From assembly GCA_965207065.1 (NCBI GenBank), contig OZ242260.1, forward strand, positions 224,001 through 288,000: a stretch of 64,000 bases of DNA. Reading direction: 5' to 3'. Below are positions 18,581 through 49,892 of this stretch, piece after piece. Positions within the stretch are counted from its first letter, which is position 1, and every line of letters starts with the position of its first letter. The DNA is from a bacterium. Lineage in GTDB: Bacteria > UBA8248. Under the pieces are notes generated by a model that was not told where the DNA came from, did no database searches, and saw only the letters and a list, made by a program, of their open reading frames with translations. The translations under genes and the position numbers were made by a program.

Positions 18581-18592
18581 ACCCGCTCCTCC

Positions 18593-30491: not shown

Positions 30492-30537
30492 AATTCCGTA
30501 TGAGGGATACCAGGCTCCCGCAAACGGCGCCGAGAGC

Positions 30538-31641: not shown

Positions 31642-33093
31642 GTGATGAACCCTTCGCTCTTGGCATATGGCGCCATGACCGTAGGCGCTGCCGCAATCAT
31701 CTGGACAAGCTTGTACAACCTCGGAGCCGCGGGTGCGTTGTTCTTGTTCCTGAATCCACTCGTGAACATCGAGGTCGCATTCTACGATACGGGAAGAAGC
31801 ATCTCATACGACAAAATGGCGCTCCTGGCCCTGGCCTCAGGCTTCGCGCTGCATGTGCTGAAATACAAAAAATCTGTTCGCTTAAAGAGCCAACCGATTT
31901 TTTGCTATATCTGGCTCGCCTACATCGTCTGGAGTCTCATTGCGGCATGGCTGAGCGGCGCTCCCTTGAAACAACAATTCTGGGGCCTCGCCGAAACAAT
32001 CGCCTATTTCATCGCTTTCCTCGTTTTTCAGGATATTTGCGAGGACGAAACCGCACGCAATCATATCTTGAAAGCCATCCTCTACGGCGGCGTCATCTTG
32101 CTGACGGTGGTATTACTCCAGAATCTGGCCTATCAGGTCATATGGAAAACCTGGGGGCCGCACCAAATCTTCCGCGCCGATTTGTTGTATTCGCAATTCC
32201 CCCGGATGTTCTTTGACTCCCGGCCCGGCCCGATCGGGCATCCGAATTTTCTCGCCGCCTACCTGATCCTGTGGACCACGCTCTATCCGCTGCTCTACCG
32301 CACGTTCTTACGTCCGGCGGCGGTCGCCATCCTCGCTGCGCACCTCATCGCATTGGCGTTGACGGGTAGCTATGGAGGAGTCCTGGGCTTCGCCATTTGC
32401 TGCTCGGTTGTTTTTTATTTAACGAACCCAAGCCCCACGAACATGACTTCCGGCCGCATCTCCTTCACCGACAGCCGTCTCCTCCGGCTTTTCCTGGCCG
32501 CTTTCCTGATCCTGTCGATTGGCACCGTCGCGGTAAATGACGAAGACTTCATGGACCTCTCGCTGCTCCCCAGAATCTATATCTATCGCGTCGGCGGAAA
32601 AATGCTCGCAGACCGCCCCCTGGCGGGCCATGGAAACGGCCTCTTCCCCCAGGCGTTTCAGAAAAGCGAGAGCGCTTACATAAACCACGAGGGACTGAAA
32701 GCACCGTCCTGGCGAGTGAAGGATCACGATTCAGCGAGAGCGAGCAAGCCCCTGGGCCGGAAAAAGGAGCTCTCCACTCGCAGGGATGAATATCTCCCGC
32801 CGCTTTCGGCCCATTCCTCTTATCTCAAAGCCTTCGTCGAATCGGGCTTTCCGGGAGGCTTTCTGTTCCTGTGCCTGATTGCCGGAGGACTCATCGAGGT
32901 GTTTCTTCACTTGAGGAAAACGGGGCGGCTTTCGATGCGCTCACCCGAAGCCTGGGGGTGGGCCGCCTGCATCGGCGTATGTTTTCAGGCTGGAGCCGAG
33001 AACATCTTCTCGTCTCCCAAAATTTCCGTTCTCTACTGGGCCATCACGGCGTACTGCCTGACGGCGAAATCCTCACGATCGAAAAGCCCCTAA
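31642..33093 (+). CDS. O-antigen ligase family membrane protein
   Basis: Multiple TM helices; GHPNFLA, LTGSYGG, PLAGHGNG and AHSSYL...ESG motifs. Confidence 0.8.
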   Translation: MMNPSLLAYGAMTVGAAAIIWTSLYNLGAAGALFLFLNPLVNIEVAFYDTGRSISYDKMALLALASGFALHVLKYKKSVRLKSQPIFCYIWLAYIVWSLIAAWLSGAPLKQQFWGLAETIAYFIAFLVFQDICEDETARNHILKAILYGGVILLTVVLLQNLAYQVIWKTWGPHQIFRADLLYSQFPRMFFDSRPGPIGHPNFLAAYLILWTTLYPLLYRTFLRPAAVAILAAHLIALALTGSYGGVLGFAICCSVVFYLTNPSPTNMTSGRISFTDSRLLRLFLAAFLILSIGTVAVNDEDFMDLSLLPRIYIYRVGGKMLADRPLAGHGNGLFPQAFQKSESAYINHEGLKAPSWRVKDHDSARASKPLGRKKELSTRRDEYLPPLSAHSSYLKAFVESGFPGGFLFLCLIAGGLIEVFLHLRKTGRLSMRSPEAWGWAACIGVCFQAGAENIFSSPKISVLYWAITAYCLTAKSSRSKSP

Positions 33094-34492
33094 AAGGACC
33101 TGCCAGAACTTCACGATACAGACAGCGGACGAAATGGAGCAGGATGGCGAACAGCCAGTAGGGGTAAAAATGGGCCGTGGTAGAAACGGCTAAAAACAAG
33201 GCAGCGACAGTGGAGAAGATGACGGCGAAAGGCATCACGAGGCAGAGTGAACCCTTATGCGGCGGCAATCGCATGATTCTGAAAAAATACCTCGCGCCAG
33301 TGATGAGCATGACTATTACCAGGACGAGTCCCAGCAATCCCAAATCCACGACAAAATTCATCGGCAGGCTGTGGAGCGAAACCGGTGCGCTCTTTCTCGG
33401 GTTTTCCTGAAACAAATCCGAAGTCGACCACCCCCGGATACCCGATTCATACCGGGTGATGTCGCCATAAAAGTACCCGGAGAACGTGGCCGGCGTATCT
33501 TTGGAGTACCCATACAAAAATCCCTGCCGCGGCCCGCCCCCCAGGAAGGGCCGCGCAATAAACACGTCCGCCACCCGCGCGTACTGAAAGAGCCGCTCCT
33601 TGACGCTCATCGAGAGATTCGATGCCTCAACGAACTCTCCCCGCACCCAAGTCCCCACCATCACGGAGACGCCGATGCACGCGAGGAAAACCGATACCGT
33701 GAGACAAGAAACGAAAAAAGACTTCATCTTCCCCTTCACGTCCGGGCGTCTTCTGAACTTCATGAAAAAGAGAATTAAAAGGAATGCGCCCAGGAAGAGC
33801 ATGAAAATCGGAACTCTGCGCCATGTAGAAAACACCAGTAGAATTCCGGCAAGCGACGCGAACAGATAGAACCAGCCGCCTCTTCTCCAGAAGAAATAAA
33901 AGGCGACTCCCGCCAGTATCAGCCCGAGCCTGCTGGCGACGATGTGGTGCCGGACGAACATGCCGAGAAAAAACCGTCCCTCATGATTGAGCGAATACGG
34001 ATTGGGGATGCGGAAATAATAGAAGAGAATGCTCTCGACACCCATCGCCAAGGCGACCCAGAACACACACCTGAGCGCGCCCTCGGACTCCTCTCTCCTC
34101 CACCGGTTGTTATGAACCAGATACCATACGAGCATGCCGTCGGCGTAGGGCACGGCGCCGGCCAGAATCCGGTAGAGGGGCACGGACGTCATTATGGGGT
34201 CATCCTGCATGTAGCCGAGGGAAATCCCCGCCCAGAAAATCACCCAGAACCAAACAGTGGTTACGGCGAACCAAAACGTGGGTTTTCGAGCACCGTACCG
34301 AATGACCTCTACCGCCCATGCGCCGCACAGCAACACAAAAAGGAGCACGTAGACCTTATAAGGACCCACGAATTGACCCGGGAAGTAGGGAACGCGTTCC
34401 CACGGGATGAGAAAATATACCGCATGCAGACGAATGACCGAGTTGGTGAGTTGATGAGAAGAGGGGTTTGACGCCGCGCGCTCCACGCTCAA
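33044..34492 (-). CDS. O-antigen ligase / polymerase-like membrane protein
   Basis: Multiple TM helices; STWRR, ER...RPFLGGG and LHS....VDLGLLG motifs. Confidence 0.7.
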   Translation of the reverse strand: MSVERAASNPSSHQLTNSVIRLHAVYFLIPWERVPYFPGQFVGPYKVYVLLFVLLCGAWAVEVIRYGARKPTFWFAVTTVWFWVIFWAGISLGYMQDDPIMTSVPLYRILAGAVPYADGMLVWYLVHNNRWRREESEGALRCVFWVALAMGVESILFYYFRIPNPYSLNHEGRFFLGMFVRHHIVASRLGLILAGVAFYFFWRRGGWFYLFASLAGILLVFSTWRRVPIFMLFLGAFLLILFFMKFRRRPDVKGKMKSFFVSCLTVSVFLACIGVSVMVGTWVRGEFVEASNLSMSVKERLFQYARVADVFIARPFLGGGPRQGFLYGYSKDTPATFSGYFYGDITRYESGIRGWSTSDLFQENPRKSAPVSLHSLPMNFVVDLGLLGLVLVIVMLITGARYFFRIMRLPPHKGSLCLVMPFAVIFSTVAALFLAVSTTAHFYPYWLFAILLHFVRCLYREVLAGPFRGFSIVRISPSGSTP

Positions 34493-34498
34493 GGAAAA

Positions 34499-35320
34499 CT
34501 ACTCCCGCGCGCCCGGCCGTCTGGAAAAATAGCCTCTCTTCACCCACATGCGCACCTTGTGCGGCAACATGCGATACGCAAACCATAGCGGCAAAAGCGC
34601 ATGATATACGAGTCCACCCCCCAGGGCGCGAATCGCTCTTCTTTGCAGCACAACACCATCGAACACATAGCGAAGCCTGGCGCCACGTTCGAAGAATTGT
34701 CTCGCATGGATTCTTTTCGCCGCCACGGGCGCCTTCAAGGAACCGAGTCTCAACCCGTTTTCATATAATCGGACGTACAGGTCCCAATCGAGTTGGCTGG
34801 CGCGGCTCTCGTCGTAGCCTCGAATCTTCTCCATCACATCTCTTCTCACAAACAACGACGTGTGAACCACGGGATTAAAAAGCATGAGTTTTTTCCTCAC
34901 GTCGTTCAGCGAAGTCCTGGCCTTTTCCAGTTCGAATCCGGGCCAATGGGGAACATCTTCGGCATAAAAAGCGTACAGGGGAGATACGACCGCGGAATAA
35001 CCGGGGAAACGCCGCATCGCCGCTTTTTGAATTTCAAATCTCCTAGGATGTGACAAATCGTCGGCGTCATGGCGGGCGATAAATTCACCTCTGCTCTCGC
35101 GCACCCCGAGGTTGAGTGCTCTTGCAAGTCCGATTCTTCCCGCCTCTATGAGGCGAATTCGGGAATCGCAAAATTGCTTGACGATGCGAATCGTATCGTC
35201 CGTGGAACCATCGTCGATAATGATGCACTCAAAATCAGGATCCGTCTGCGCGAGTATGCTCTTCACAGCGTCGACGATGTAGTCCTGTGCGTTGTAAGAC
35301 GTCATCAAAACGCTTATCAC
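34499..35320 (-). CDS. Glycosyltransferase family 2
   Basis: ISVLMTSYN, DDGSTD and ARHDADD motifs. Confidence 0.92.
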   Translation of the reverse strand: MISVLMTSYNAQDYIVDAVKSILAQTDPDFECIIIDDGSTDDTIRIVKQFCDSRIRLIEAGRIGLARALNLGVRESRGEFIARHDADDLSHPRRFEIQKAAMRRFPGYSAVVSPLYAFYAEDVPHWPGFELEKARTSLNDVRKKLMLFNPVVHTSLFVRRDVMEKIRGYDESRASQLDWDLYVRLYENGLRLGSLKAPVAAKRIHARQFFERGARLRYVFDGVVLQRRAIRALGGGLVYHALLPLWFAYRMLPHKVRMWVKRGYFSRRPGARE

Positions 35321-35341
35321 TTCGAATTCCTCTCTCCTGCA

Positions 35342-37267
35342 TCAAGTGTCCGCCGAGTGTCGGGCGTCCAGCATCTCCCGAAACCAAAGCTCCAAAACAG
35401 ACAGAAACCAGATAAGAGGGTAGGCGGACCTCCCTTCCAGGAAACGGGCGTACAGCCTGCGCACCTCTTTGGGCGAGAAAATCCCTCTTCGTCGAAGCGA
35501 CTCCTCACTCAGCGCGTCTTCGAGGATTTCTCGCAATTCCCCCCTCATCCAATTCGCCATCGGAAGGGCGAAGCCCTGCTTTTTTCTGCCTGAAATCCCA
35601 GCGGGAATTACGTCGCGAAGTGAAGCCTCGAGCAATCTCTTCGGGTGCCCCCATCTTCTCTCCCAGCCAGGCGGCAGGCCACAGACGAATTCCACGACAT
35701 GATGATCGACGAACGGCACCCGCACTTCCAGGGAATGAGCCATGCTCATCGTGTCGGTATCCCGCAAGGTTCTCCATCCCATATACACCTGCATTTCGAG
35801 TTCGCTCAGAACGCTCCAGGGTCTCTCGCCGACACGGACCAACGACTCGAGCATCGCCAAAATTTTTGTATCCACTTTGCGCTCGCGAAAGTAGGCCTGA
35901 AGTTGTGGGGTATACAAAGCCCTTTTCTCCTCGGGCCACAACAAAAAACGCGCCAGGGCGTACAATCCCAGCGGCGATTTCACCCATTGCAGCCGAAGAA
36001 ATTTTTCGATGCGCTCTGGAGGCATATTCGGGCTGCGTTGGAGCATCAGCGAGACAAGAGTCACGAGGGTTTTTCTCGCCTTCAAAGGCAACTTTCCCCA
36101 CGTGGTCGAAATTCGCCAACAAGGCGGTATCAGACGAAAAGAGTCGTAGCCGCCGAAAAGCTCATCCGCGCCGAGACCGGACAAAGCGACGGTAACGCCA
36201 TTTTGCTTGGCTATCTGAGATACGAGATAGGTATTGACTCCATCAAAGCTGGGCTGATCCAGGTGCCGTATAATCCGGGGAAGTTCCTCCACTAATTTCG
36301 AGCCTTTCAGCACGAATTCGGTGTGGTGCGTTGAGAAGGATTGGGCGGCCGTTCTCGCATGTCGCCTCTCGTCGTACACTTCCGGAGCGTCATCGAAACC
36401 GACCGAATAGGTTCTTACGGGTTTGTCCGACTGATGCGACATCAATCCCGCAATCGCCGAAGAATCCAGGCCGCCACTTAAAAAAACCCCCAGGGGGACA
36501 TCGCTTATCATGTGGAGTTCGACGCTTTCCTCTAGCAGACTTCGCAGACGGGGGACTATTTCCTTCTCGGCGCATCGCGTCGCTCCGGCCATCGGCATAT
36601 CCCACCATCGCTCGATGGATGCCTCCCTCTCCGTGATGTGCAACCGGTGTCCCGGCGGCAAAGCCTTTACGCCTTTCAATAGCGTGCGTGGGCCGGGAAC
36701 ATAGCCCAGAGAAAGGCTGAGGTCGAGAGAATGCAGGTCCAGTTCGGGGCGAATAACGCCGCTTCTCACCAACGCCCCCAACTCCGAGGCGAACGCCCAT
36801 CCACCCGCAATCGGCGCGTAATACAAAGGCTTGACGCCAAGCCGGTCGCGGGTCAAAAGCAAGACCCTTCGACCGGCGTCCACGATGGCGAATGCGAACA
36901 TGCCTCTCAAAAAACGGGCGCACTCATCTCCTTCTTCCTCGTAAAGGCGCAGAAGAACCTCCGTGTCGGAGCGCGATCTGAAAGCGTGGCCACCACCCGC
37001 CAGAGCTTCCCTCAACCGTCTGAAATTATAGATTTCACCGTTCAATGCGACGCAGATCCTCCCATCTTTGCTGGTCATAGGCTGTTTCGCCGCTGAACTC
37101 GGATCGATGACGCTCAGACGTCTCACACCGATGCAGGTCGTACCGAAACGCCAAAACCCCGCATCGTCGGGTCCGCGATGCGTCATCGCACCACACATCC
37201 TCGCAACCCCCTCTTCTATCGAAGATAAAGAGAGTTCGGTCGAAGTAATCCCACAGATTCCGCACAT
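35342..37267 (-). CDS. asnB: Asparagine synthase-type amidotransferase (second copy)
   Basis: Start moved to MCGICG (ATG 37267), because the Ntn Cys must be residue 2; HRGPD, NGEIYN and FLSGGLDSS motifs. Confidence 0.92.
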   Translation of the reverse strand: MCGICGITSTELSLSSIEEGVARMCGAMTHRGPDDAGFWRFGTTCIGVRRLSVIDPSSAAKQPMTSKDGRICVALNGEIYNFRRLREALAGGGHAFRSRSDTEVLLRLYEEEGDECARFLRGMFAFAIVDAGRRVLLLTRDRLGVKPLYYAPIAGGWAFASELGALVRSGVIRPELDLHSLDLSLSLGYVPGPRTLLKGVKALPPGHRLHITEREASIERWWDMPMAGATRCAEKEIVPRLRSLLEESVELHMISDVPLGVFLSGGLDSSAIAGLMSHQSDKPVRTYSVGFDDAPEVYDERRHARTAAQSFSTHHTEFVLKGSKLVEELPRIIRHLDQPSFDGVNTYLVSQIAKQNGVTVALSGLGADELFGGYDSFRLIPPCWRISTTWGKLPLKARKTLVTLVSLMLQRSPNMPPERIEKFLRLQWVKSPLGLYALARFLLWPEEKRALYTPQLQAYFRERKVDTKILAMLESLVRVGERPWSVLSELEMQVYMGWRTLRDTDTMSMAHSLEVRVPFVDHHVVEFVCGLPPGWERRWGHPKRLLEASLRDVIPAGISGRKKQGFALPMANWMRGELREILEDALSEESLRRRGIFSPKEVRRLYARFLEGRSAYPLIWFLSVLELWFREMLDARHSADT

Positions 37268-37382
37268 ATTTCTCACCAAGCCATCTTTTTGCCGTTTAAT
37301 AACAACCATCTCGCCAATGTAGCGGCGAGAGACCTCGAACCCGACGAGAACCGGTGCGGCCGGGACATTTCGTTCAGCCGCT

Positions 37383-39146
37383 TTAAGACTGTAGTTCCAC
37401 AAATTTTTTATATAGGCCTTGCATCCGCATGAGAGCGGGATGGTCACCTTCCTCGACGATTCTCCCGCCCTCCAGAACCAGAATCTTGTCCGCATCCCTG
37501 ATCGTGGAAAGGCGGTGAGCGACTATCAGAATGGTCATTCGCCCCCCGAGATTCCCTGCGGCCTCCTGGATAAGACGCTCAAACCCGCTATCGAGCGAAC
37601 TCGTCGCTTCGTCCAGAACCAGTATGCGTGGAGAGCGAACCAGTGCTCTTGCGAGGGCGAGTCGCTGTTTCTGTCCCCCGGACAATTTGAACCCCCGGTT
37701 TCCGATTATCGTCCCGTATCCCTCGGGCAACCCAATGATGAATTCATGGGCATAGGCGATCTCCGCCGCCTTTTGTACCTGCGCTTCATCCACACTCAAG
37801 TTTCCATAGCGTATGTTGTTGTGAATCGTGTCGTTAAAGAGATAGGGATCCTGTTCCACCACCCCGATCCGGCTTCGCCATTCTTTTGCGGACACCTGTC
37901 TCAAATCCACGTCATCGACAAGAATGACGCCTTGCGCCGGATCGTGAAGACGCAAGAACAGATTGACGAAGGTCGTCTTCCCGCTTCCCGAGGAACCAAC
38001 GATCGCCGTCGTCGCATCCTTTTCGATCGATGCGTTTATTCCGCTCAGTGCATCGCCCTGCGCGCCCGGATAGGCGAAAGAAACGTTTTCGAACCGGACA
38101 CCCTTTCTCAGGGAACCGAAGGAGATGGTCCCTTCTGGCAACAATTCCTGACATTCACCTTCTGTGTATTCGAGAACCCTCGCCAAATGGGGGGCGAATT
38201 CGCTCACGATGAGCCAATAGTTGCCTATCAGCTTGAGCTTGGGGAGTACCTGCAAGAAGATCGCCAAAAACACCGTGAGGGTGAAAAAGGGAATATTCAG
38301 AAATTTGACAGAAACAACCAGACAGAAAACCATCATGAGGAAAATCAACGGTTCGTAGAAGAACGACGCGACGATTCTGTTGTCCATGATCCGGACCGAC
38401 ACCCGGCGATATTCGCTCGCTCGCATCGTGTAATTTTCGATGTGGTGTTCGAGGTTTCCGAACACCTTCACCGTCTTGATTCCCGAGAAAACATCGAGAA
38501 GATAGGAACTGACGTTTTCCACCCCTTGAGATTCTTTCTCTCCTTGCGCATAGGCCCTTCGAAACCAGGGGAGCAGAAAAATCCAGGAGATTGACGTAAG
38601 GCAGAGGACCAGAACACTCAGCGAAACAGAAACCATCAGATTCAGAATCAGATACAAGATACAGAAGAAAACGGCGTTCGTGATGAGCATTGCGTGTTCG
38701 AAAACGAAACCGCAATTATTCGCAGAGGTGAATTGAACGGCGAGGAGGTCACCGACTTTTTTCCGGTAGAAAAACGAGAGTGGGAGCCCCAGGAGGTTCC
38801 GGAAGATTTTTTCTCTCATGTCGCATGAGATTCTCGCGCTCAGCATCCGTGCAAAGCGCATAGAGAGCGCAACAAGAGAATATTTGACCAGCATGGCGAA
38901 CGTGAACAAAGCGACGAGATTGATTAGTGAAAACTCCAGGCCGACGACGCCGAATCCCCATTCTGTGTACGCCGTGAGGACGTGGTTCGTTTCGATGCCC
39001 TGAATCGTCTGGAATATGGGCATCAACAGACCCAGGCCGACGCTTTCAAACATCGTCGCCAAAATGAGGATGACCAGATACAAGAACAGGAAATCCTTGT
39101 ATTCCTGTGCGACGGCGAAGATATTCCTTTGCTTATCGTTCCACAT
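37383..39146 (-). CDS. ABC exporter, fused permease/ATPase (MsbA/PglK-like glycan flippase candidate)
   Basis: N-terminal TM domain; GSSGSGKT, LSGGQKQR, LDEATS and AHRLST motifs. The start codon is uncertain. Confidence 0.88.
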   Translation of the reverse strand: MWNDKQRNIFAVAQEYKDFLFLYLVILILATMFESVGLGLLMPIFQTIQGIETNHVLTAYTEWGFGVVGLEFSLINLVALFTFAMLVKYSLVALSMRFARMLSARISCDMREKIFRNLLGLPLSFFYRKKVGDLLAVQFTSANNCGFVFEHAMLITNAVFFCILYLILNLMVSVSLSVLVLCLTSISWIFLLPWFRRAYAQGEKESQGVENVSSYLLDVFSGIKTVKVFGNLEHHIENYTMRASEYRRVSVRIMDNRIVASFFYEPLIFLMMVFCLVVSVKFLNIPFFTLTVFLAIFLQVLPKLKLIGNYWLIVSEFAPHLARVLEYTEGECQELLPEGTISFGSLRKGVRFENVSFAYPGAQGDALSGINASIEKDATTAIVGSSGSGKTTFVNLFLRLHDPAQGVILVDDVDLRQVSAKEWRSRIGVVEQDPYLFNDTIHNNIRYGNLSVDEAQVQKAAEIAYAHEFIIGLPEGYGTIIGNRGFKLSGGQKQRLALARALVRSPRILVLDEATSSLDSGFERLIQEAAGNLGGRMTILIVAHRLSTIRDADKILVLEGGRIVEEGDHPALMRMQGLYKKFVELQS

Positions 39147-39346
39147 GAGGCTTCTTCTCTGAAGCCGGAAATTGCCCGAAAACAAAACGATTGCATTGGA
39201 CCGAAAACCCCGGGCGCATCGAGAAAATCACTCAATGTGCTCCAGAAGTTATGGCATGCGTTTCATCGTCACTCGTTCGCGGGCCGGGTCGATATCTCCG
39301 GAACCATTGCCTCGTGGTGGGTCTTTTCTATCTCGTGGAGTGGCGT

Positions 39347-40753
39347 TCATGAAGTTTGAACATCGGCAATATTATCAGACGGAGCCGTTTGCATCCACTC
39401 GGCCGCAATCTTCTCAGCCAACCAGAACTCATATTCGGAATCGATTCTCACGCTTTCCTCCGGAAGCATCGTGATGTGCCCTATTCTTTCTCCCAGGAAT
39501 TTCCCGGCCAGAATTGTATCCACCCGGTTCAGGTATATCGCGCCGTTATCCTTGAACAACGCTTTTCTCTCCAGACGCAGCGTTCTCTGTAGAGAGCCGT
39601 TGACGGGGGTGAGTCCGTGTTTACCGTGATGATAGTAAAACGAAAAATCCTCGGTTATGGATATCACGGAATCGACATTGAAAATCGTCATGGTGTCCAC
39701 AGCCTTGTCTATGTGTGCGCCCCCGCGAAGAGGAGTGTTGACGCAACAAACACATACGGCGTCGGGGATATAACCCCGCTCCTCCAGCGTCTTCAGAACA
39801 TGAAGTGACGTATCCTCCATCCTCACGGCCCATTTCGCCGGCGCTTGGGGCATGAGGAGTACGTCCACTCCCTTAAAACGATTCGCATAAGCCAACACGT
39901 CTTCATCGTTCGAGGAAACGACTGCCTTGTCGATGGAGCGCGCTTCCATGATTTGCTCCAGCGTCCGTTCCAGCAGCGATTTTCCCATGAACTGTCGGAA
40001 AGGATCTCCGAATGCGAATCCCCAATCCAAGAATGCGGGAACGAGAGCCAGCACTTTCGGTATGCGGGAGAGGTTCATCTCCTCCACCACTCGCCTTTTA
40101 ATTTTGCGGCGCGTCTCCAGAATCAGACCGCGGGATTTAGACAAGCTCGCTTCGTGGCGACGATAATAGAACAGGGGCACATTCACGTTGTAAGGCCGAT
40201 GTCGCTCAATGAATTTCAGCCACATGCCATAACCATCCTGGCAACTGAACTCCTCGAAATAACCGCCAATTTCCCACAGGACTTGCTTGCGGATCATGGT
40301 GCATGCGCCATGGGCCGGAAGATCCAGCAAATCAACTTCTTCTCCTATTTTCTGGCGACGGATGATTTCTGTGATCTCTCCATCCTCGTTCACTAGAAAA
40401 TAATCCGGGTACACCAGATCCACGTCGGGCTTCATGTCCAGAACTTGGGAGAGAACCAATAGGATGTTCTCATCCAGGAAATCATCCGCATCCAGCCGCA
40501 TGAAGTATTCGCCTTTAGCGATGCGCAAGGCCATGTTGTTTGTGAAATTAAGACCCCTGTTCTCTTGCTTGAGAATGCGAATCTTGGGATGCATTCTGTA
40601 GGATGCGAGAATTTGTGTGGTGTCGTCCGTCGAACCGTCGTCGATGACGATCAACTCCCAGTCGTCCATTGTTTGTTTCAACACGCTTTGGAGCGCGGCA
40701 TTGAGAAAACGCCCGTAGTTGTAGGCGGGGATATACACCGTGACCTTAGGCAT
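39347..40753 (-). CDS. Fusion: GT2 glycosyltransferase + acylneuraminate cytidylyltransferase-like domain
   Basis: N-half has YIPAYN, DDGSTD and RLDADD. C-half has VLALVPA, VVSSND, TPLR, NGAIY and IDSEYEF. Confidence 0.85.
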   Translation of the reverse strand: MPKVTVYIPAYNYGRFLNAALQSVLKQTMDDWELIVIDDGSTDDTTQILASYRMHPKIRILKQENRGLNFTNNMALRIAKGEYFMRLDADDFLDENILLVLSQVLDMKPDVDLVYPDYFLVNEDGEITEIIRRQKIGEEVDLLDLPAHGACTMIRKQVLWEIGGYFEEFSCQDGYGMWLKFIERHRPYNVNVPLFYYRRHEASLSKSRGLILETRRKIKRRVVEEMNLSRIPKVLALVPAFLDWGFAFGDPFRQFMGKSLLERTLEQIMEARSIDKAVVSSNDEDVLAYANRFKGVDVLLMPQAPAKWAVRMEDTSLHVLKTLEERGYIPDAVCVCCVNTPLRGGAHIDKAVDTMTIFNVDSVISITEDFSFYYHHGKHGLTPVNGSLQRTLRLERKALFKDNGAIYLNRVDTILAGKFLGERIGHITMLPEESVRIDSEYEFWLAEKIAAEWMQTAPSDNIADVQTS

Positions 40754-40792
40754 GACGATTCAACCCGGATGCCAGGAATACTGACTCCATGA

Positions 40793-42385
40793 TCACTCCA
40801 CCATGTCCATCAAGAGAGCCTGATCCGCCTGGATGTCCGTTTTCGCTCTTTTCCCGATAAATTCATCCATCATCCAGCCGGGAAGTCCCTCAGCGGGACG
40901 TTTCATGCCCAGCATTGAGGATTCAATGGTCTCTCCGCGCCGTATATCCCGTTCTGCAACGATGCTGCGTCGCGCGCTGTTTCGCGCAGAAATTTCCGAC
41001 TCGGCGACTCCGAGCGCGCCGTCGCCCAATACGCTTTCGGCAAGACGAACGTTTTGCACCATCTTTTTCAAATCTTCCGGGTTCATCGAAAAGGAATGTC
41101 CCGAACCGCTCAGGCTTCGGTCCAACGTGTAGTGTTTTTCGATGACCCTTGCGCCCAGCGCAACGCCAAGGGCGGGTATGGCCATTTGTTCATCCGGCTC
41201 CGTATGGTCCGAGAGGCCGACGATGAGGCTGGGATATCTTTCCTTCAAAGTATGGATTCGAAGGAGGTTCGCGTCTTCGTTCTCGGCCGGATAACTCAAG
41301 GTGCAGGCCATGAGGATGAGTTGGCGATTGCCTGTAGCGAAAAAGGTGGCGATAGCCCGCTCAATCTCCTCCACCGTAGAACCGCCGGTCGAAAGAATGA
41401 CGGGCTTGCCGAAACCGGCCACGCACTTGAGCAAGCGGCTGTCGGGAAGATCGCAGGAGGCAATTTTGAAGAGCGGCGCGCCCAAATCATTCAGCATCTC
41501 GGCGCTTTCGAGGTCGAACGGCGTGGAGAACGTGATAACACCCTTCTCACGGCCATGTGTGAAAAGCGCTTCATATTCGGGCTTGCCGAAGCGATCAAGT
41601 TTCCGATAATACTCGATTTGCAGGATCCGCTTTCCCCGCCAGTAGGTCATCGCCCCTTTGCGCGTCAGCCGTTCGGCCTTGTAGGTCTGGAACTTGACCG
41701 CATCCACCCCGGCATCGGCAGCGAGATCGATCATCTCTTTGGCAAGCCCCAGGTCACACATGTGGTTGCAGGCACCTTCGGCAATCAGAAAGGCGGAATG
41801 TCCCGCGCCTATCATTTTGCCTCCGACGGTGATTTCCTTTGAATATGCACTCATCTCCTGTTCCGCCATGGCGAAGTCGAATGCAGTGTGGATGTTGATA
41901 CAATCATCTCGAACGATGGAAGATTGAAGAGGCGGATCCGCCATCAACCCTCTTAAGCTCATGATGCGAAGCGCTCCGTTCCGCTTGCCATGGCGGTCCA
42001 CAGTGCGCAAATCGTCGATCCCGTAGTCTTTGACATATCTGACGAGGGCGTCCAGATCGCTTTTTCTGTTCGGATGATCCGGCTGAATTCCGACGAGGAA
42101 AGAAATTTTCTCACGGCTCAATTTCTCTGCGACGTCCCGGTAGACTTCGAGCAAGGGCGTTTCACCACCCAGCTCTTGGCCACGTAGATGAACCATCGCG
42201 CCGTTTCGTACAGCAATTTCGGCGACCTCCTCCGTATCGGTGGAGACGACGATCTTGTCCACGCTTTTGAATCTTCGTGCGTACCGAATCGCATGCGCCA
42301 CCAAAGGTAATCCGTCGATAACCAACAAATTTTTACCCGCCAGACGACCCGAATGCCGCTTGGCCGGTATGACGGCGACGATCAC
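40793..42385 (-). CDS. neuB: Fusion: NeuA-like cytidylyltransferase + NeuB N-acylneuraminate synthase with SAF domain
   Basis: IPAKRHSGRLAGKN and VSTD at the N-terminus, then IAEGACNH, VKFQ, STPFD, KIAS, GLSDHT, IEKHYTLD and ARRSIVA. Confidence 0.9.
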   Translation of the reverse strand: MIVAVIPAKRHSGRLAGKNLLVIDGLPLVAHAIRYARRFKSVDKIVVSTDTEEVAEIAVRNGAMVHLRGQELGGETPLLEVYRDVAEKLSREKISFLVGIQPDHPNRKSDLDALVRYVKDYGIDDLRTVDRHGKRNGALRIMSLRGLMADPPLQSSIVRDDCINIHTAFDFAMAEQEMSAYSKEITVGGKMIGAGHSAFLIAEGACNHMCDLGLAKEMIDLAADAGVDAVKFQTYKAERLTRKGAMTYWRGKRILQIEYYRKLDRFGKPEYEALFTHGREKGVITFSTPFDLESAEMLNDLGAPLFKIASCDLPDSRLLKCVAGFGKPVILSTGGSTVEEIERAIATFFATGNRQLILMACTLSYPAENEDANLLRIHTLKERYPSLIVGLSDHTEPDEQMAIPALGVALGARVIEKHYTLDRSLSGSGHSFSMNPEDLKKMVQNVRLAESVLGDGALGVAESEISARNSARRSIVAERDIRRGETIESSMLGMKRPAEGLPGWMMDEFIGKRAKTDIQADQALLMDMVE

Positions 42386-43677
42386 CTCCCCTCTCCTCTC
42401 GTATTCCCGTTTGAAATCACGGGCATGATTTGTCCCGCCTGCCGAAGCACGATGACTTTCGAATCCGGTCCTCTCGTTTCCAATGCGGCATTGATTGCCG
42501 CCTCTATCGACTCGGCCCAGCCGAATCCCATTCGCTCCGCTTCCTCGTGACCGATATGAGGAGAAACCAATATCCCATTTACTCGTTTGGAGATAATTCT
42601 GCCGATGGCGACCAGCGTATAGGCCAGGAGTTTTTCACGAAATTCACCCGCCTCGACCTTGCGGTAAAGTGTGTCGGGGTCTTTGAACCCATAGCACTCA
42701 AAATGGGGGAATTGCGGAGAGATGCCCTCCCGGCATTCCGCGGCCAGGATGATCACTCCACCATCACGGCAGACGACGTCCGCCGCGCACACGGCCTTGA
42801 TGGCTTGTCGCAGATCGATGTCGGAGGGATAGGCTTCCGCAACGACGACTTCCGCCCTGGCAGGAACCGAAGCACCGTATAGCTTCAGGCATCTTTCACA
42901 GCCCGCCGCATGCGCCGCTTCCATGTCTCCCGCAACGGCGTCAAAGATCCTTTCCTCATCCATCATGATCGTGTTGACGATGAAGCGCAGCCCGGCTCGC
43001 CGAGCGATGCGAACGAACGCTTCCCTCACCTTGTTGTCGAAAATGCCGAGAATTTCGCTCATCTCGTAATCCAGAGCTGCCCAATGGGTCGCCTCTATCG
43101 TGGCCTCGCCGCAAATACCTGGCATCACGCTTTTTGCCCCGCCGGAAAACCCCGCCGTCGCATGGGGGATGATGCTGCCGACGGATATGAGGAGATCCGC
43201 CTTCAGGATTTCCCTGTTCATCAGCACTTCGAAGCCTAACTTGCTCTTTCCCAAAGAAGTCAGCTTTGTGGGGTTTTTCCATTCGTGGTTGAGAATCTCG
43301 AATCGAGCGACCAGATCGTCACCGAACTTGCGCCTTATCTCCTCATCCATCATGGCGCGGTGTGTGCCCAAGCCAATCAGAATACGTACCGAGGAATCAG
43401 AGATGCCCGCCTCGGCGAGTTCCTCCAGGACAATGGGGACCACGCGGTGAAGCGGCGTATGGCGCGTATTGTCGTCGGTGACGATCAGCACCTTCTCCGC
43501 GCCTTTCGAAATCTCCCGGAGAGGGGGAGAGCCGATCGGGTTTCGAATCCGCTCCCTGAGAGCTTCATCGTCAAGACCTATACCTTCAGGCAGGGAGGGG
43601 CCATAGACGCCCATCAACCGCCCATCTCCGACTTCGAAGTCTCCGAACAAATCGTTCGTCAAGGATATTCTGGCCAT
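42382..43677 (-). CDS. larA: Nickel-pincer-dependent lactate racemase (LarA) family protein
   Basis: NPIGSPPL, DDNTR, GLGTHR, NH, PHATAGFSGGAKSVMPG, ATH and QAIKA match the LarA catalytic and cofactor-binding motifs. Confidence 0.88.
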   Translation of the reverse strand: MARISLTNDLFGDFEVGDGRLMGVYGPSLPEGIGLDDEALRERIRNPIGSPPLREISKGAEKVLIVTDDNTRHTPLHRVVPIVLEELAEAGISDSSVRILIGLGTHRAMMDEEIRRKFGDDLVARFEILNHEWKNPTKLTSLGKSKLGFEVLMNREILKADLLISVGSIIPHATAGFSGGAKSVMPGICGEATIEATHWAALDYEMSEILGIFDNKVREAFVRIARRAGLRFIVNTIMMDEERIFDAVAGDMEAAHAAGCERCLKLYGASVPARAEVVVAEAYPSDIDLRQAIKAVCAADVVCRDGGVIILAAECREGISPQFPHFECYGFKDPDTLYRKVEAGEFREKLLAYTLVAIGRIISKRVNGILVSPHIGHEEAERMGFGWAESIEAAINAALETRGPDSKVIVLRQAGQIMPVISNGNTRGEGR

Positions 43678-45563
43678 CAGCTCGTCTCCGCCTCATCGTT
43701 TTTCCACAAATCGGAACCGGGGGATGAGAAAATATCCACCCATTCCGCACGCCAATTCTTGCTCCTCCTGTAGTAGCGATGCGTAAACTCGGCGACGGCT
43801 TCTAGCGTTTGGCCGTCCTCCCACCACGAATCGACGTCGGGCCAGATGGCGTTCAGGTGTCTCGCCGCACTCTCGCCGGAGGAATGATGAACGCTCACGC
43901 TTGAGAGTTTATTGAAGTAGGGCTTCGAATAATGTGAAATCCGCCAGGCGTTTTGATGGCCAAAGAAGAGGGTCGGAATGCCCGCCGCCATCGTGAAGGC
44001 CGCCGTCGTCCCCGGGCGATCGAGTACGCAAACCCCGCACCTCGACAGAGCGGGCGAGAGACGACTCGGCATGTATCTCACCAGTTTTCCGCGAAGGATA
44101 TTTATGTCTGGATATCGCGTTTTGATGTAGGCTTCGTCATAACGGTTGTTTCTCCTGCGCATGTACGGCCTGTACCACAAGGCGGAACGGGGCGCGTCGT
44201 CCAGGTGTTCGATAAAACTCGCCTTCTCCCGCATATAGCGCGGTATGTCTTCGGGCAGGCAGTCCGCCGCCAGCCATTTGAGATGGGCAGTGAGTTCGGA
44301 GGTGACCAGAACGATAGTTGAGCCGCGCTTCTTGTTCCGCCTCATTTTCGAAAGAAACGGAGACGCCGCCGGCAGGGCGCTTACCCGATAATCGGATTGA
44401 CGACTCCACCCCCACGATATGAACCGATCGGCTGTCTCATATTCCGTGAGATGATGCCAGGGTGCCGATTTGATGATGCCGTAGTTTCCTCCGTGCTGAT
44501 TGATGACCAGCCTGACAGGACGTTTTTCGATCAGAGCGGCTACGTAAAAATTCGACTGATCGTCATTGCCCAGATGGCCGTAGGCGATTGTGTCCGTCCA
44601 GGGCGCCGTCGCCTTTACCTTCAACAGGGCTTTTTTCTCGTTTTCAAAATAATGCTCCGTGAATACCCTCGGCATCGTCTCCGAAACGAGTGCATCCAGA
44701 ACGCTCAGGAAAACTTCGGCTTCCCCGGCGGCGATGTGTCGTATCGATTGGATTTCTCCGGCCACATCTTCCCTGGTGAGGTGCGCACTTCCCGCTTCAG
44801 GCGTCTTTTGAAACGATCCGGCAGCCTCCCTCCAACGCCTTCTGTTTCGAAACAGCATGCGTAATGATATGTAGGCGGCATCCAGCGGACTCAAACCATG
44901 CACTTTATGGAACTGCACGAAGCCTAAGTTTGAGGACAAAATGCTCGCCCAGCGATACAACTCCATTTTTCTCTGCACTTTTTTGAAAACGGTATAGTTT
45001 TCCGTTGGTTGCTTACCCGGGAGGTGGTCTGAGTAGAAATACAAATCTTCCGGGGCCGGCGCGCCCTCTCGCATTACCCAGCCCCGGGGCTGAAATACGC
45101 GGATAAACCTGCTGAAAATCAGACGGTTCAGCGGATCATCGATCATCATCTGGTTGAAATGATGCGTCGTGATGGATGATAGAGTCTCATCGCGCGGCGC
45201 GAGATATACCAGATGCGGAACTCCGCTCTTGATACGAATCCTGATGCGCAAGAATCGCTCGAATGCGCACATGACCAGATTGACCAGCCAAGGCATCAAC
45301 AATATGCGCCAGTAGCGATTCGAATAAGAACGCCCGTGCCTTTCATTTTGTCGGATGTTTAGCCCAGCAAGATAGAATTCACAAACCTTCTCCAGTCTTC
45401 TGGAGACGAAGTGAACCTCCTCGCCTCGGAGTGGAGGCTCGATTCCATACTTCTTCCACTCCCACTCGAAAAACTGAGCCTCAGGGAGCGACCAGGGACC
45501 CAGATGCTCGGCCTGTCGTTCATCCAGGACGGGATCGATTCTTGTCAGAATAAGTTGATTCAT
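43677..45563 (-). CDS. LIC12162 family putative transferase (surface-glycan clusters)
   Basis: H...S.RYWRILLMPWL, QHGGNYG, FISWGW and WW...Q motifs. Start moved to ATG 45563 because the longer ORF runs into the tRNA. Confidence 0.7.
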   Translation of the reverse strand: MNQLILTRIDPVLDERQAEHLGPWSLPEAQFFEWEWKKYGIEPPLRGEEVHFVSRRLEKVCEFYLAGLNIRQNERHGRSYSNRYWRILLMPWLVNLVMCAFERFLRIRIRIKSGVPHLVYLAPRDETLSSITTHHFNQMMIDDPLNRLIFSRFIRVFQPRGWVMREGAPAPEDLYFYSDHLPGKQPTENYTVFKKVQRKMELYRWASILSSNLGFVQFHKVHGLSPLDAAYISLRMLFRNRRRWREAAGSFQKTPEAGSAHLTREDVAGEIQSIRHIAAGEAEVFLSVLDALVSETMPRVFTEHYFENEKKALLKVKATAPWTDTIAYGHLGNDDQSNFYVAALIEKRPVRLVINQHGGNYGIIKSAPWHHLTEYETADRFISWGWSRQSDYRVSALPAASPFLSKMRRNKKRGSTIVLVTSELTAHLKWLAADCLPEDIPRYMREKASFIEHLDDAPRSALWYRPYMRRRNNRYDEAYIKTRYPDINILRGKLVRYMPSRLSPALSRCGVCVLDRPGTTAAFTMAAGIPTLFFGHQNAWRISHYSKPYFNKLSSVSVHHSSGESAARHLNAIWPDVDSWWEDGQTLEAVAEFTHRYYRRSKNWRAEWVDIFSSPGSDLWKNDEAETS

Positions 45564-45707
45564 GCGTCGGGCGCTTTTCTCACGCCTCACCGCATATGCA
45601 TGAGGCGTGAATGGAGTAACGGCACTGATGGCCGTCCCCCCAAGGCGCGCGTTGTTACACCCTCGCGCCGCTCGACTTGACGGGAAAGAAATCTCGATAT
45701 TCAGGCT

Positions 45708-45785
45708 TGGCGTCCCCAAGGGGATTCGAACCCCTGTTGCCGGCGTGAAAGGCCGGTGTCCTGGGCCAGGCTAGACGATGGGGAC
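45708..45785 (-). tRNA. tRNA-Glu (anticodon TTC), CCA encoded
   Basis: GTCCCCATCGTCTAGCCTGGCCCAGGACACCGGCCTTTCACGCCGGCAACAGGGGTTCGAATCCCCTTGGGGACGCCA folds as a cloverleaf with a GTTCGAA T-loop. Confidence 0.97.
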
Positions 45786-45881
45786 AAGCAAAATCCATGA
45801 TGGCCGATAGGGATATCCCGAACCATCAAGGGGTCGATTTATACTGGTTTTCGCGCCGGAAGTCCATCCTGTTCCACTGTT

Positions 45882-46751
45882 TCAAACGCGCAAGACAACG
45901 AGTATCACCCCGCTCACGGTGAGCGTCGCTCCCGCGGGTACGCGCCATGTGATGAATTCGGCTTTCCTGAGAAAGATCACACTGAATAGCACGGTAAACA
46001 AAGGGCTGATCTGAACGAGCGGCACCACCCTGAAAACCTCGCTCAACTGCAAAGAGGAGGTGAAAAGAAAAATTCCCATTCCCGCCGCGACCCCACCCAG
46101 CAGATACGGCCAAAACGCTTGCTTCACGTCACCTGCCTCCTCTTCACGCAAGGCGTAACAGGTGTATGCGCCCACCAGGACGAGAGCGGCGGAGGCGCCT
46201 ACCATCGCGGCGGGAAGGGCGCTCGGGAAAGCAACCAAGCCCTTTTTCCAGGACATGGCTCCAAACCCCGATATGATTGCCGCAATCAGGGGCCACCGGG
46301 CGTCCCAGCGGCTCCAGCGTCCTTCCGTCTTTCCCGAAACGAGCAACACGATGCCGCCTACGACGAACAAAACACCCACCAGATGATACCAGGCCGGATC
46401 CTCACCCAGAAAAATGAGCGCGAAAAGAGCTGCGAATATAGGGGACATCCCCTTTATCGGCGCCGCTCGCGCTACGCCGATCCGGTGGATGCCGATCAGG
46501 AAAAAGATAAGGAAAAGACCCGGGTTGCACAGGCCGCCTATCATCACCCACAAATAGTGCGCGCCCATTTCCGGAAACGAGGGACTCAAGAGGAAAACCA
46601 ACGGGACGAAGAAGAGCAACTCCCCCACCAGTGTGATGGTGGCGCCCACGAAATGGTTGGCGTACTGCAAGCCTTTGCGCGCGAAGATATCCGCACAGGT
46701 GAAAGACAGCGCCGCGCTCAGAGCGAGAAAAACAAACGGCTCGATCAGCAA
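45882..46751 (-). CDS. DMT / EamA family transporter
   Basis: About 10 TM helices with two EamA repeats (SPIFAAL..FLGE; SPLFTVL..FLRKAE). Confidence 0.88.
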   Translation of the reverse strand: MLIEPFVFLALSAALSFTCADIFARKGLQYANHFVGATITLVGELLFFVPLVFLLSPSFPEMGAHYLWVMIGGLCNPGLFLIFFLIGIHRIGVARAAPIKGMSPIFAALFALIFLGEDPAWYHLVGVLFVVGGIVLLVSGKTEGRWSRWDARWPLIAAIISGFGAMSWKKGLVAFPSALPAAMVGASAALVLVGAYTCYALREEEAGDVKQAFWPYLLGGVAAGMGIFLFTSSLQLSEVFRVVPLVQISPLFTVLFSVIFLRKAEFITWRVPAGATLTVSGVILVVLRV

Positions 46752-48215: not shown

Positions 48216-49892
48216 TCAAAAATCATCCCCCGAGAATTCAGGCCGCTCCCGTAATATCGCCTTGATGTCCTCTCGCTTGTGTTTGCGCGTGGTGGTTCTG
48301 GGCAACTCCTCCTCGGGCCAGAGGAAAAAACCGGCCACTCTCTTGTAATCCGCAAGGTGCGCGCTCAGGCGCTTGAGTTCCGTATCTGCCAGAGTCGTTC
48401 GCTCTTCGTCTTCTTGCGGCAAATCGGTTTCGGGGTCGAGCACCACGACGGCGAACACCTCCTCGCCACCGCGAGGCGTTTTCCTGCCGATGACGCATAC
48501 ATCCTGGAACCATGCACTCTCGAGAAGCTGCTCCTCTACCTCTTCGGGATAAATGTTTTTGCCCGCCTCGGAGACGATGACGTTCTTGGACCGGCCGCAT
48601 ATCGTGAGATAGCCGTCCGAGTCGATACGGCCGATGTCTCCGGTATGAAACCATCCATCCCGCAAGACCTCCGCCGTGAGATCGGGATTCTCGAAATAGC
48701 CCTGCATCACGTTTGGACCCCGTATCAGTATTTCACCCTCTCCCTCGTCCGCACCCTCTACAGGTACGAGCCTCGCTTCCACCCCCGGAATCGGCGGGCC
48801 GACGGTTCCGATTCTATTTTGCGCTCCCGGCGGAGTCGCATGGGCGACGGGAGAGGTTTCCGTCAAGCCATATCCCTGGACCACCTCGATTCCCAGGATG
48901 AGCAAATCTCGAGCGATTTTGGGGTCGAGCGCGGCCCCTCCGCTAGCGAAATAGCGCAGATTCGGACCAAGATTCTTCTTCACCTGGGAAAACAGCAGAT
49001 GACCGACGCGAATACCCATCGACAGGCATATCCTGGAAATCCCGAAAAGAGTCTTGAAGACGAGTTTTTTCGCTCCGCTCAGTGATTCCACGTTCGACAT
49101 GATCCGCTTGTGGATGAGCCGCGCAAGCGCTGGCACCATCAGGCAGATGGTAATGCCCTCGTTTTGCATGGCCTCGACGAGGAGCCGCGGGTTCAGGGAA
49201 GAAAGGTAATGCACGCGGGCGCCCGCCCCCAGCGGTATCAGGAAACCGCCCGTACTCTCGAACATGTGGTGAAGCGGCAGAACCGAGAGAAAAACGTCAC
49301 CCTCCCTGGCGAGGAATGTCTGGAGAACTGCGCGCACATTGGAAGTGATGTTCCCATGAGAGAGCATCACGCCCTTGGGTGTACCCGTCGTCCCCGATGA
49401 AAACGACACCAGCGCTAGATCGTCCAGACCGCGCTCCGCACCCGGCAGTGCATCCAGCGATACAGCGGAGTCAGGCTCTCTCTCCTCATCGATGCGCAAT
49501 ACTGCGCAGGTCGATTCGAGACCGACCGCAAGCGCTTCGGCACGTTCCTCTTCACGGGAATCCGTCACAAGGCAAACGGGCTTGGCTTTTTCCATAATGT
49601 TCGCGAGTTCACCCTCTTTCAAATTCACGTCCAGAGGCACGAGAACGCCGCCGGCGAGCAGCGCCCCGAAATATCCCACCCCCCATTCGGGTTGATTCGG
49701 CGCCAGCTGTGCGACAAAATCTCCCGGCTTCACGCCCGCATCTATCAACTCGCTCGCCAGGGCGGCTGCTTTTCCGCACAACTCCTTTCTGGTGAGCGTC
49801 ACTCGGCCGCGTCCTTCTACGTCTCCTTCCAAGGCGATCGAATCGGGAAATTTCGCAGTTGTCTCTTTCAGGAGATCGATCAAGGTATCCAT
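48216..49892 (-). CDS. Long-chain acyl-CoA synthetase / AMP-binding protein
   Basis: FSSGTTGTPKG, QGYGLTET, FHTGD and GR.KN.I motifs. Confidence 0.9.
   Translation of the reverse strand: MDTLIDLLKETTAKFPDSIALEGDVEGRGRVTLTRKELCGKAAALASELIDAGVKPGDFVAQLAPNQPEWGVGYFGALLAGGVLVPLDVNLKEGELANIMEKAKPVCLVTDSREEERAEALAVGLESTCAVLRIDEEREPDSAVSLDALPGAERGLDDLALVSFSSGTTGTPKGVMLSHGNITSNVRAVLQTFLAREGDVFLSVLPLHHMFESTGGFLIPLGAGARVHYLSSLNPRLLVEAMQNEGITICLMVPALARLIHKRIMSNVESLSGAKKLVFKTLFGISRICLSMGIRVGHLLFSQVKKNLGPNLRYFASGGAALDPKIARDLLILGIEVVQGYGLTETSPVAHATPPGAQNRIGTVGPPIPGVEARLVPVEGADEGEGEILIRGPNVMQGYFENPDLTAEVLRDGWFHTGDIGRIDSDGYLTICGRSKNVIVSEAGKNIYPEEVEEQLLESAWFQDVCVIGRKTPRGGEEVFAVVVLDPETDLPQEDEERTTLADTELKRLSAHLADYKRVAGFFLWPEEELPRTTTRKHKREDIKAILRERPEFSGDDF

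Follow-up and report, generated by a model that had tools for sequence, protein, structure and literature searches.

A LarA-type putative nickel-pincer epimerase in a conserved gene module for a proposed non-canonical ulosonic acid

The characterised LarA homologs racemise or epimerise free 2-hydroxy acids in catabolism, and one recent family of enzymes with the same nickel-pincer nucleotide (NPN) cofactor transfers hydride, according to a passage in PMC13524815. The DNA considered here, a 64,000-nucleotide window (C1:224001-288000) of a 4.48-Mb genome that was assembled as a single contig and is 96% complete, encodes a LarA homolog between genes of an apparent ulosonic acid operon. The initial annotation proposed a new role in surface-glycan biosynthesis, either the supply of a chiral hydroxy-acyl substituent or the epimerisation of a sugar-acid precursor. 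The question raised by the locus is whether the enzyme belongs to the glycan pathway at all and, if it does, what reaction it catalyzes. A dedicated role in an ulosonic acid glycan pathway was well supported by comparative genomics, on the evidence of co-localisation, co-occurrence, a single clade and a distinctive substrate pocket. Of the two possible chemistries, the sugar-acid alternative fits better. The LarA homolog is read here as one of three obligatory components of a self-contained module for a non-canonical ulosonic sugar activated by cytidine monophosphate (CMP). The genes immediately concerned are:

43677-45563, minus strand: LIC12162-family transferase, 628 residues from the ATG at 45563 (TIGR04331)
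42382-43677, minus strand: LarA homolog, 431 residues, with Lar_N and LarA_C domains
40793-42385, minus strand: fusion of a NeuA/KdsB-like domain (residues 1-195), a NeuB-family synthase (residues 199-456) and an SAF domain (residues 472-530)
39347-40753, minus strand: family 2 glycosyltransferase (GT2, residues 1-210) fused to a second NeuA-like domain (residues about 230-450), the third conserved member of the module

The gene overlaps that had been annotated could be read directly in the sequence. At the LIC12162/larA junction (...AGC TGA TGG CC...), the stop codon TGA and the start codon ATG share one base at 43677 within the TGATG at 43675-43679, while at the junction of larA and the NeuB fusion (...GGA GGT GAT CGT...) the start codon GTG and the stop codon TGA overlap by 4 nt at 42382-42385. 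Purine-rich stretches lie upstream of both the TGATG and the GTGA, and the LarA-homolog gene is translationally coupled on both sides. The module comprises three genes, and the region initially delimited was too short, as the next gene, encoding the GT2/NeuA-like protein, takes the module to 39347.

A scan of one genome per species yielded 57 LarA loci, which were searched by tblastn with the proteins of the window. The NeuB partner was present in 34 of the 35 loci in which the LarA homolog was at least 45% identical, and 32 of the 35 also had the GT2/NeuA-like partner; in those loci the partners were on the same strand and within 10 kb of the LarA homolog. The exceptions were found at the ends of loci or contigs, one being a 3.2-kb contig (L026) and two others having an insertion that pushes the partners to the end of the locus (L025, L029). 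Neither partner occurred in any of the 22 loci with LarA homologs of 41% identity or less. The records of the module loci were labelled Nitrospinota, Cytophagia, Planctomycetota, Verrucomicrobiota, Desulfobacterales, Thermodesulfobacteriota and Omnitrophota, and the trio stayed together despite changes in gene order: LarA, NeuB, GT2 in Nitrospinota; NeuB, LarA, GT2 in the Cytophagia, Planctomycetota and Verrucomicrobiota loci; and GT2, LarA, NeuB in Omnitrophota and Desulfobacterales. The co-localisation of larA and neuB, first seen in this genome, thus recurs in several phyla. Among 51 Nitrospinota genomes, a LarA ortholog was found in 22 and the NeuB fusion in the same 22 and one fragmented assembly, while 28 had neither.

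No fourth gene accompanied the trio in more than 5 of 19 loci when the neighbours were clustered all against all. A Pfam tally of 85 neighbouring open reading frames (ORFs) from 14 non-Nitrospinota loci showed that the genes beyond the trio were mostly those of tailoring enzymes (7 methyltransferases, 6 radical S-adenosylmethionine (SAM) enzymes and 3 carbamoyltransferases), with precursor genes only scattered. No acyl-activating or acyl-transfer gene travels with the module by either the clustering or the tally.

A quick maximum-likelihood tree of 51 rows, from which 7 rows had been dropped beforehand (six with a stop symbol in the extracted translation and one too short), placed the module-linked LarA homologs in one clade of 30 rows with a Shimodaira-Hasegawa-like approximate likelihood ratio (SH-aLRT) support of 99. 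In this sample the module clade branches next to, and among, LarA homologs with Trp at the Y294 position, and the sister clade has the gluconate-epimerase-like residues R/G, V, W, A and H at the specificity positions. In L045, the only sister locus that was annotated, the LarA homolog lies within a conserved run of genes, between those for a TRAP transporter, two short-chain dehydrogenases/reductases (SDR), an FGGY kinase and a 2-hydroxyacid dehydrogenase, and L044 and L047 share its ORF layout (all three are Bacillota; about 5000-14000 in each). These sister-clade loci have the look of a route with a sugar-acid epimerase that is yet to be characterised. Among archaea, the best LarA matches (33-39% identity) lacked module neighbours.

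The protein itself is a member of the LarA superfamily, with matches to Lar_N (2.4e-56, 190.6 bits) and LarA_C (1.5e-14, 54.7 bits) that both exceed the Pfam cut-offs, and its gene is the only Lar_N gene in the genome. Against solved structures it gave E values of 6e-57 to Mar2 and 1.8e-54 to LarA, with 30-35% of residues alike. In LarA numbering, the catalytic histidines are H108 and H174, the NPN-binding residues R75, K184 and H200, and the carboxylate-binding residues Q295 and K298, as described in passages of PMC11770544 and PMC7583248. All of the catalytic and cofactor-binding residues are kept, as R72, H106, H172, K182, H198, Q291 and K294. Together with D68/D69, they were invariant in 17 relatives and in all 36 clade members, so that the D..R, H, H, K, H and Q..K motif residues recognised at the outset hold for the whole clade.

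The substrate pocket, however, did not correspond to that of any characterised group. The protein scored far below all six NCBIfam equivalog cut-offs of the LarA family (313 against 500, 297 against 460, 278 against 540 and 247 against 462 bits among them). It is not an ordinary lactate racemase: NF033504 gave 297.2 bits against 460, and positions 175, 176, 358 and 359 read A, T, Y and T, so that F175, F176 and W358 are replaced by Ala, Thr and Tyr, where the lactate racemase signature given in passages of PMC11770544 and PMC7583248 is F, F, W and E/Q/T. Assignment as a malate racemase (LarAH5/LarAH6) failed at 313 against 500 and 247.4 against 462 bits, with Y-T in place of H/Q-K at positions 358/359. 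Nor does it fit gluconate 2-epimerase or hexonate epimerase (GntE, LarAH18-20), since NF052594 scored 73.1 against 500 and the A, T, Y, T residues and Arg290 differ from the E, V, A, H at 175, 176, 358 and 359 and the Trp at the Y294 position that the same passages report (PMC11770544, PMC7583248).

The specificity positions F175/F176/Y294/W358/T359 of LarA correspond to A173/T174/R290/Y353/T354, and there is additionally a lysine at 349. All 36 clade members had the five residues, whereas none of the 21 other LarA homologs compared did, 20 of them having Trp at the R290 position; position 349 was K or R in all 36 and in none of the 21. The 120 nearest database clusters showed the signature wherever those columns were present. 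Among the best 150 representatives at 50% identity, only about 3-6 had the signature or a near variant, and this rarity, combined with fixation in the clade, defines a compact and sharply delimited subfamily. Its signature is unlike those published for the lactate, malate, hydroxyglutarate, hydrophobic-acid and gluconate enzymes, and a Protein Atlas look-up returned generic lactate-racemase clusters only. Two new cationic side chains and smaller loop residues suggest a larger substrate with an extra negative charge.

The genome has the means of making the cofactor. As the initial annotation noted, the window has no larB, larC or larE; these genes lie outside it, adjacent in the order larE-larB-larC at C1:3809160-3811923 (3.81 Mb), 3.5 Mb from the module, with scores (larB 295.6, larC 459.8 and larE 341 bits) that are all above the cut-offs. 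The window was also said to lack neuC and any pse or leg precursor gene, and this holds for the whole 4.48-Mb genome: PF02350 (NeuC/WecB-type epimerase) had no match in it, PF02719 (PseB/LegB-type dehydratase) gave only weak generic SDR matches of 37.9 bits or less, and a tblastn search of the genome with Leg/Pse-type proteins from related loci found no PseB-like or epimerase gene. Because both the PF02350 epimerase and the PseB/LegB dehydratase are absent, the precursors of N-acetylneuraminic (Neu5Ac), legionaminic (Leg) and pseudaminic (Pse) acid are not makeable by known routes. There is one true NeuB gene in the genome.

That NeuB gene is the one in the module. The fusion protein matched CTP_transf_3 (1.6e-14, residues 3-122), NeuB (1.1e-73) and SAF (3.2e-9). 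The scores for NeuB (PF03102, 248.1 bits) and SAF (37.6 bits) exceed the gathering scores and place it in the NeuB family, while those for the equivalogs fall below the cut-offs, with 299 against 399.65 for TIGR03569 (NeuB) and 273.9 against 340.25 for TIGR03586 (PseI). The module NeuB profile scored 278.8 bits to SpsE, 262.4 to PseI and 224.2 to NeuB.

The N-terminal domain of the fusion protein had been annotated as neuA. By sequence, only its N-terminal half could be matched, to positions 1-118 of the 217 in the CTP_transf_3 (PF02348) profile, and the sugar-binding half is not recognisable. At the level of the fold, the predicted model of the 195-residue domain, with a predicted local distance difference test score (pLDDT) of 89.7, superposes on whole CMP-Neu5Ac, CMP-Kdn, CMP-Pse and CMP-Kdo synthetases with query-normalised template modelling (TM) scores of 0.74-0.81. 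It thus appears to be a whole, compact NeuA fold, and a truncated half-domain was rejected on the same model. R14 and K18 of its basic motif for cytidine triphosphate (CTP) are invariant, and the IPAK..S.RL..KN and QPDHP motifs align with the CTP-binding motifs of KdsB. In the 39347-40753 protein, D88/D90/D91 of the GT2 domain are invariant, and the C-terminal domain aligns with residues 23-222 of the N. meningitidis enzyme. The N-terminal basic CTP-binding motif of this second NeuA-like domain is not conserved and is absent in the window's copy.

Other arrangements of these domains were seen. A Pirellulales locus with the trio (L032) encodes, at 5663-7480, a 605-residue NeuB-then-cytidylyltransferase fusion with the opposite domain order, and the NeuB adjoining its LarA homolog has no N-terminal domain. 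No fusion of NeuA with LarA was found: a search for longer proteins gave only unrelated fusions, the best 150 representatives for the clade profile were all 445 residues or shorter, and searches of 401 Thermoproteota genomes with Lar_N, the clade profile and the NeuA domain, followed up at three sets of loci, yielded none. An 838-residue frame (L074) was explained by a LarA gene and a transporter gene that overlaps it in a different frame, and a 518-residue frame (L075) was too short for such a fusion. Two Thermoproteota proteins of 549-558 residues (L092:6810-8459 and L093:8190-9866), each with a NeuA-like domain at the N terminus and a gene that overlaps one for NeuB/SAF, were rejected as candidates because no Lar domain matched either of them. 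The C-terminal part of the L093 protein has a weak GT-B (PseG/GT28-like) match and that of the L092 protein no recognised domain.

These observations make it very probable that the LarA homolog works in this ulosonic acid pathway in some capacity. For the more specific reading, that it is a dedicated NPN epimerase of an anionic, sugar-acid-type intermediate of a non-canonical CMP-ulosonic acid, we judge the chances to be about even, the chemical step and the substrate class both being inferred. In the proposed pathway, the NeuB domain would condense phosphoenolpyruvate with an aldose other than N-acetylmannosamine (ManNAc) or a 2,4-diacetamido-6-deoxyhexose, because the genome is without the routes to those two. 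The fused NeuA-like domain, possibly aided by the second NeuA-like domain on the GT2 protein, would make the CMP-sugar. The LarA homolog, carrying NPN made by the distant larE-larB-larC products, would invert the hydroxyl-bearing carbon beside the carboxylate in a large, polar sugar-acid intermediate that is additionally anionic (carboxylated or phosphorylated), and so would fix a configuration out of reach of the ordinary pathway. The GT2 domain, the LIC12162 GT-B transferase, the Wzy-like proteins and the ABC (ATP-binding cassette) exporter described below would build and export the glycan. The order of the steps is as provisional as the steps themselves. The preference for a sugar acid over a hydroxy-acyl substituent has three grounds, 1) the pocket is larger and polar and has gained two cationic residues, 2) the sister clade is found in a sugar-acid catabolic operon at the one locus that was annotated, and 3) no acyl-handling gene accompanies the module.

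Several considerations weigh against this reading. Its main weaknesses are that we know of no canonical ulosonic acid pathway with a 2-hydroxy-acid intermediate, and that the module has no gene for introducing a second carboxylate or a phosphate ester. The NeuB product is itself a 2-keto acid, and in its ring form C2 bears no hydrogen. No dehydrogenase or hydrolysing epimerase of a uronic-acid precursor route was conserved with the module, and such a route stays one option within the proposal. The cofactor genes are not specific to this enzyme: larC was found in 43 of the 51 Nitrospinota genomes, many of them without any LarA homolog, which itself occurs (E of 1e-20 or less) in only 25 of the 51. 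Other users of NPN in the phylum are therefore probable, and the idea that larEBC exists solely for this LarA homolog was rejected on the same grounds; NPN-dependent aldo-keto reductases are known from a passage in PMC13524815. Among eight module-bearing metagenome-assembled genomes (MAGs) of other phyla, larC was present in 6 and was not found in 2, their completeness being unstated. The tree was the quick version, with its seven rows removed. The organisms that are labelled in the records are MAGs or uncultured, and no glycan structure is tied to the module. The support consists of sequence comparison and models, and the activity is putative.

A variant places the enzyme later in the pathway, on the ulosonic acid itself or its CMP-bound form, where it could invert the carbon beside the second, terminal carboxylate of an ulosaric acid or pass hydride to the 2-keto group. 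We consider this somewhat unlikely.

It is unlikely, too, that the LarA homolog racemises a small 2-hydroxy acid (lactate, glycerate or similar) that becomes an acyl, ether or ester group on the ulosonic acid or on a neighbouring sugar. Free 2-hydroxy acids are the substrates of every characterised LarA homolog, and the family includes glycerate racemases, as stated in a passage of PMC11770544. The methyltransferases and B12-radical-SAM enzymes that are frequent neighbours of the module could tailor such a group. N-glyceroyl and related groups occur on pseudaminic and legionaminic acids, which also speaks for a substituent. However, conservation with the module does not extend to any acyl-CoA ligase, ATP-grasp enzyme or acyltransferase; a tRNA gene and two unrelated genes separate the operon from the AMP-binding enzyme at 48216-49892, which shows synteny in Nitrospinota only. 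The genome moreover lacks the amino-sugar route needed for N-acylation, and a pocket that has exchanged Phe/Phe for Ala/Thr and gained Arg290 and Lys349 suggests a larger anionic substrate.

There may be no epimerisation at all if the hydride chemistry of NPN is directed at the NeuB product, an open-chain 2-keto-3-deoxy acid, reducing it to a 3-deoxy-aldonic acid or effecting an intramolecular redox shift before CMP activation. The LarA mechanism passes through a bound 2-keto acid, according to a passage in PMC7583248, and the NeuB product is of the same type as this intermediate of every LarA reaction; the LarA gene also lies directly between the genes with NeuA-like and NeuB domains, translationally coupled to them, and intermolecular hydride transfer has been described for an NPN enzyme of another scaffold in a passage of PMC13524815. 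Nevertheless, the protein retains the two catalytic histidines of true racemases and epimerases, and there is no evident hydride donor. To our knowledge, no 3-deoxy-aldonic acid occurs in a glycan, and the explanation appears very unlikely.

That the protein is an ordinary catabolic racemase hitch-hiking in a polysaccharide locus, as the mosaic nature of glycan loci, the adjacent tRNA gene and a G+C content below that of the flanks might suggest, is scarcely credible: conservation of the trio through order changes in several phyla, its joint gain and loss within Nitrospinota and the single clade make it unlikely, the pocket is clade-specific, and no transporter, kinase or dehydrogenase of a catabolic route accompanies the gene.

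The putative transferase at the head of the operon matched TIGR04331 with 285.6 bits against a cut-off of 225 and so belongs to the LIC12162 family. Its start at the ATG at 45563, as initially annotated, is borne out by homologs of 628 residues and by a change of frame upstream in relatives. The longer, 680-residue frame from a TTG (43677-45719) is an artefact, as its first 46-48 codons fall in another frame in ten related loci and its first 52 codons are non-coding, lying over a spacer and the tRNA gene's 3' end. The predicted model (pLDDT 87) has GT-B glycosyltransferases as its best PDB folds, at low TM scores of 0.25-0.33, and there are weak matches to GT4 and GT41 enzymes; the protein is a candidate for the GT-B-like enzyme that transfers the ulosonic acid. 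Only the Nitrospinota loci have it alongside the trio. In four loci within L039-L043 (labelled Omnitrophota or Planctomycetia), a protein with a BFO_1060-like C-terminal domain is encoded at the corresponding place, and pairwise comparison of the LIC12162 protein with the BFO_1060-like protein of the Omnitrophota loci revealed no similarity. The BFO_1060-like family includes the nonulosonic acid transferases of Tannerella, as described in a passage of PMC5420450, and a Lic12162-family gene lies beside neuABC in Herbaspirillum, according to a literature passage.

The module genes are part of a co-directional run of nine genes on the minus strand, from 45563 down to 33044, that begins directly after a tRNA-Glu gene. 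The other features recorded for the run and its boundary are:

45708-45785, minus strand: tRNA-Glu(TTC), by ARAGORN, immediately upstream of the operon and marking its 5' boundary
37383-39185, minus strand: ABC exporter, HepA/MsbA-like, with fused transmembrane and ATPase domains, by domain and family searches
35342-37495, minus strand: asparagine-synthase-type glutamine amidotransferase, by domain and family searches
34499-35320, minus strand: GT2 glycosyltransferase, by domain and family searches
33044-34492, minus strand: Wzy/O-antigen-ligase-like membrane protein, by domain search, the last gene of the run

The tRNA gene lies 145 nt upstream of the first start codon of the operon. The ABC exporter is syntenic in most Nitrospinota loci and in L031. 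The hidden Markov model and homolog matches of the 35342-37495 amidotransferase begin only at residues 46-77 of the listed ORF, and the true start is probably about 70 codons inside it. Upstream, on both strands, are a second Wzy-like gene and genes for a sugar-phosphate transferase, a GT1 glycosyltransferase, another amidotransferase and a methyltransferase, and from this complement of Wzy-like, sugar-phosphate transferase, glycosyltransferase, amidotransferase and methyltransferase genes around the run the region is a surface-polysaccharide locus. Its G+C content (28000-46000) is 0.51-0.56, compared with 0.59-0.66 in the flanks. The junction between the EamA and LIC12162 genes is syntenic across the Nitrospinota loci, so the glycan locus is not a recent insertion in this genome.

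The two asparagine-synthase-type glutamine amidotransferases of the glycan locus (35342-37495, directly after the ABC exporter, and 27371-29317) may amidate a sugar carboxylate; they are kept with the module only in Nitrospinota. Elsewhere in the window, at 15260-19678 on the minus strand, a sulfatase, a 3-hydroxyisobutyrate-dehydrogenase-like protein and a mandelate-racemase/enolase-superfamily protein are encoded together, possibly as an acid-sugar utilisation set unrelated to the operon.

No publication that connects LarA or lactate racemase to NeuB, nonulosonic acids or glycan synthesis came up in full-text literature searches, the single co-mention being unrelated. The main texts of two LarA-superfamily surveys do not contain the terms neuraminate, sialic, polysaccharide, glycosyl, NeuB or cytidylyl, while their supplementary context tables may list the association. 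The clade is regarded here as a new LarA subfamily, sharply delimited, whose biosynthetic setting is also new. A LarA subfamily so firmly associated with a NeuB synthase and NeuA-like domains would bring surface-glycan biosynthesis within the reach of the NPN cofactor and would imply that a sialic acid-like sugar is made by chemistry outside the Neu, Leg, Pse and Kdn routes. Should the variant reading be true, with the ulosonic acid or its CMP form as the substrate, an undescribed class of CMP-activated sugar acid would follow, and nucleotide-sugar biosynthesis would have its first nickel-pincer enzyme, distributed across several bacterial phyla. The question is directly testable, given that the module of three genes is defined, the residue signature is diagnostic, and R290 and K349 are candidates for substrate binding.

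The module can be compared with known systems, component by component. With LarA of L. plantarum (5HUQ), Mar2 (6D6Z), the gluconate 2-epimerase GntE (4NAR) and a broad-spectrum LarA (9EIA), the LarA homolog shares the two-domain architecture, the catalytic histidine pair, the NPN-tethering lysine, the nickel-binding histidine and the carboxylate-holding Arg/Gln/Lys, as well as the presence of the cofactor genes in the genome. It differs in its scores below the cut-offs, in the A/T/R/Y/T specificity positions and in belonging to a biosynthetic glycan operon instead of a catabolic or lactate context. The synthase has the full NeuB TIM barrel and SAF domain of B. subtilis SpsE (1VLI, legionaminic acid pathway), PseI (8H2C) and N. 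meningitidis NeuB (1XUU), and is set apart by its sub-cut-off scores, the fused compact cytidylyltransferase domain and the lack of canonical aldose-precursor genes in the genome. The predicted model of that fused domain superposes on the CMP-ulosonic acid synthetases (NeuA/CNS, 1EYR and 6IFD; CMP-Kdn, 9T4Z; CMP-Pse, 9FTC; KdsB), and two of its motifs align with the CTP-binding motifs of KdsB, whereas the domain has only 195 residues, its sequence similarity is confined to the first 120 residues and the module has a second NeuA-like domain on the GT2 protein. Finally, the LIC12162 gene resembles those of the Tannerella forsythia transferases (BFO_1060/Tanf_01245 family) and of Herbaspirillum LIC12162 in encoding a large, soluble GT-B-type transferase and adjoining ulosonic acid genes; its product has no pairwise similarity to the BFO_1060-like protein of the Omnitrophota loci, and the donor of the LIC12162 protein is putative.

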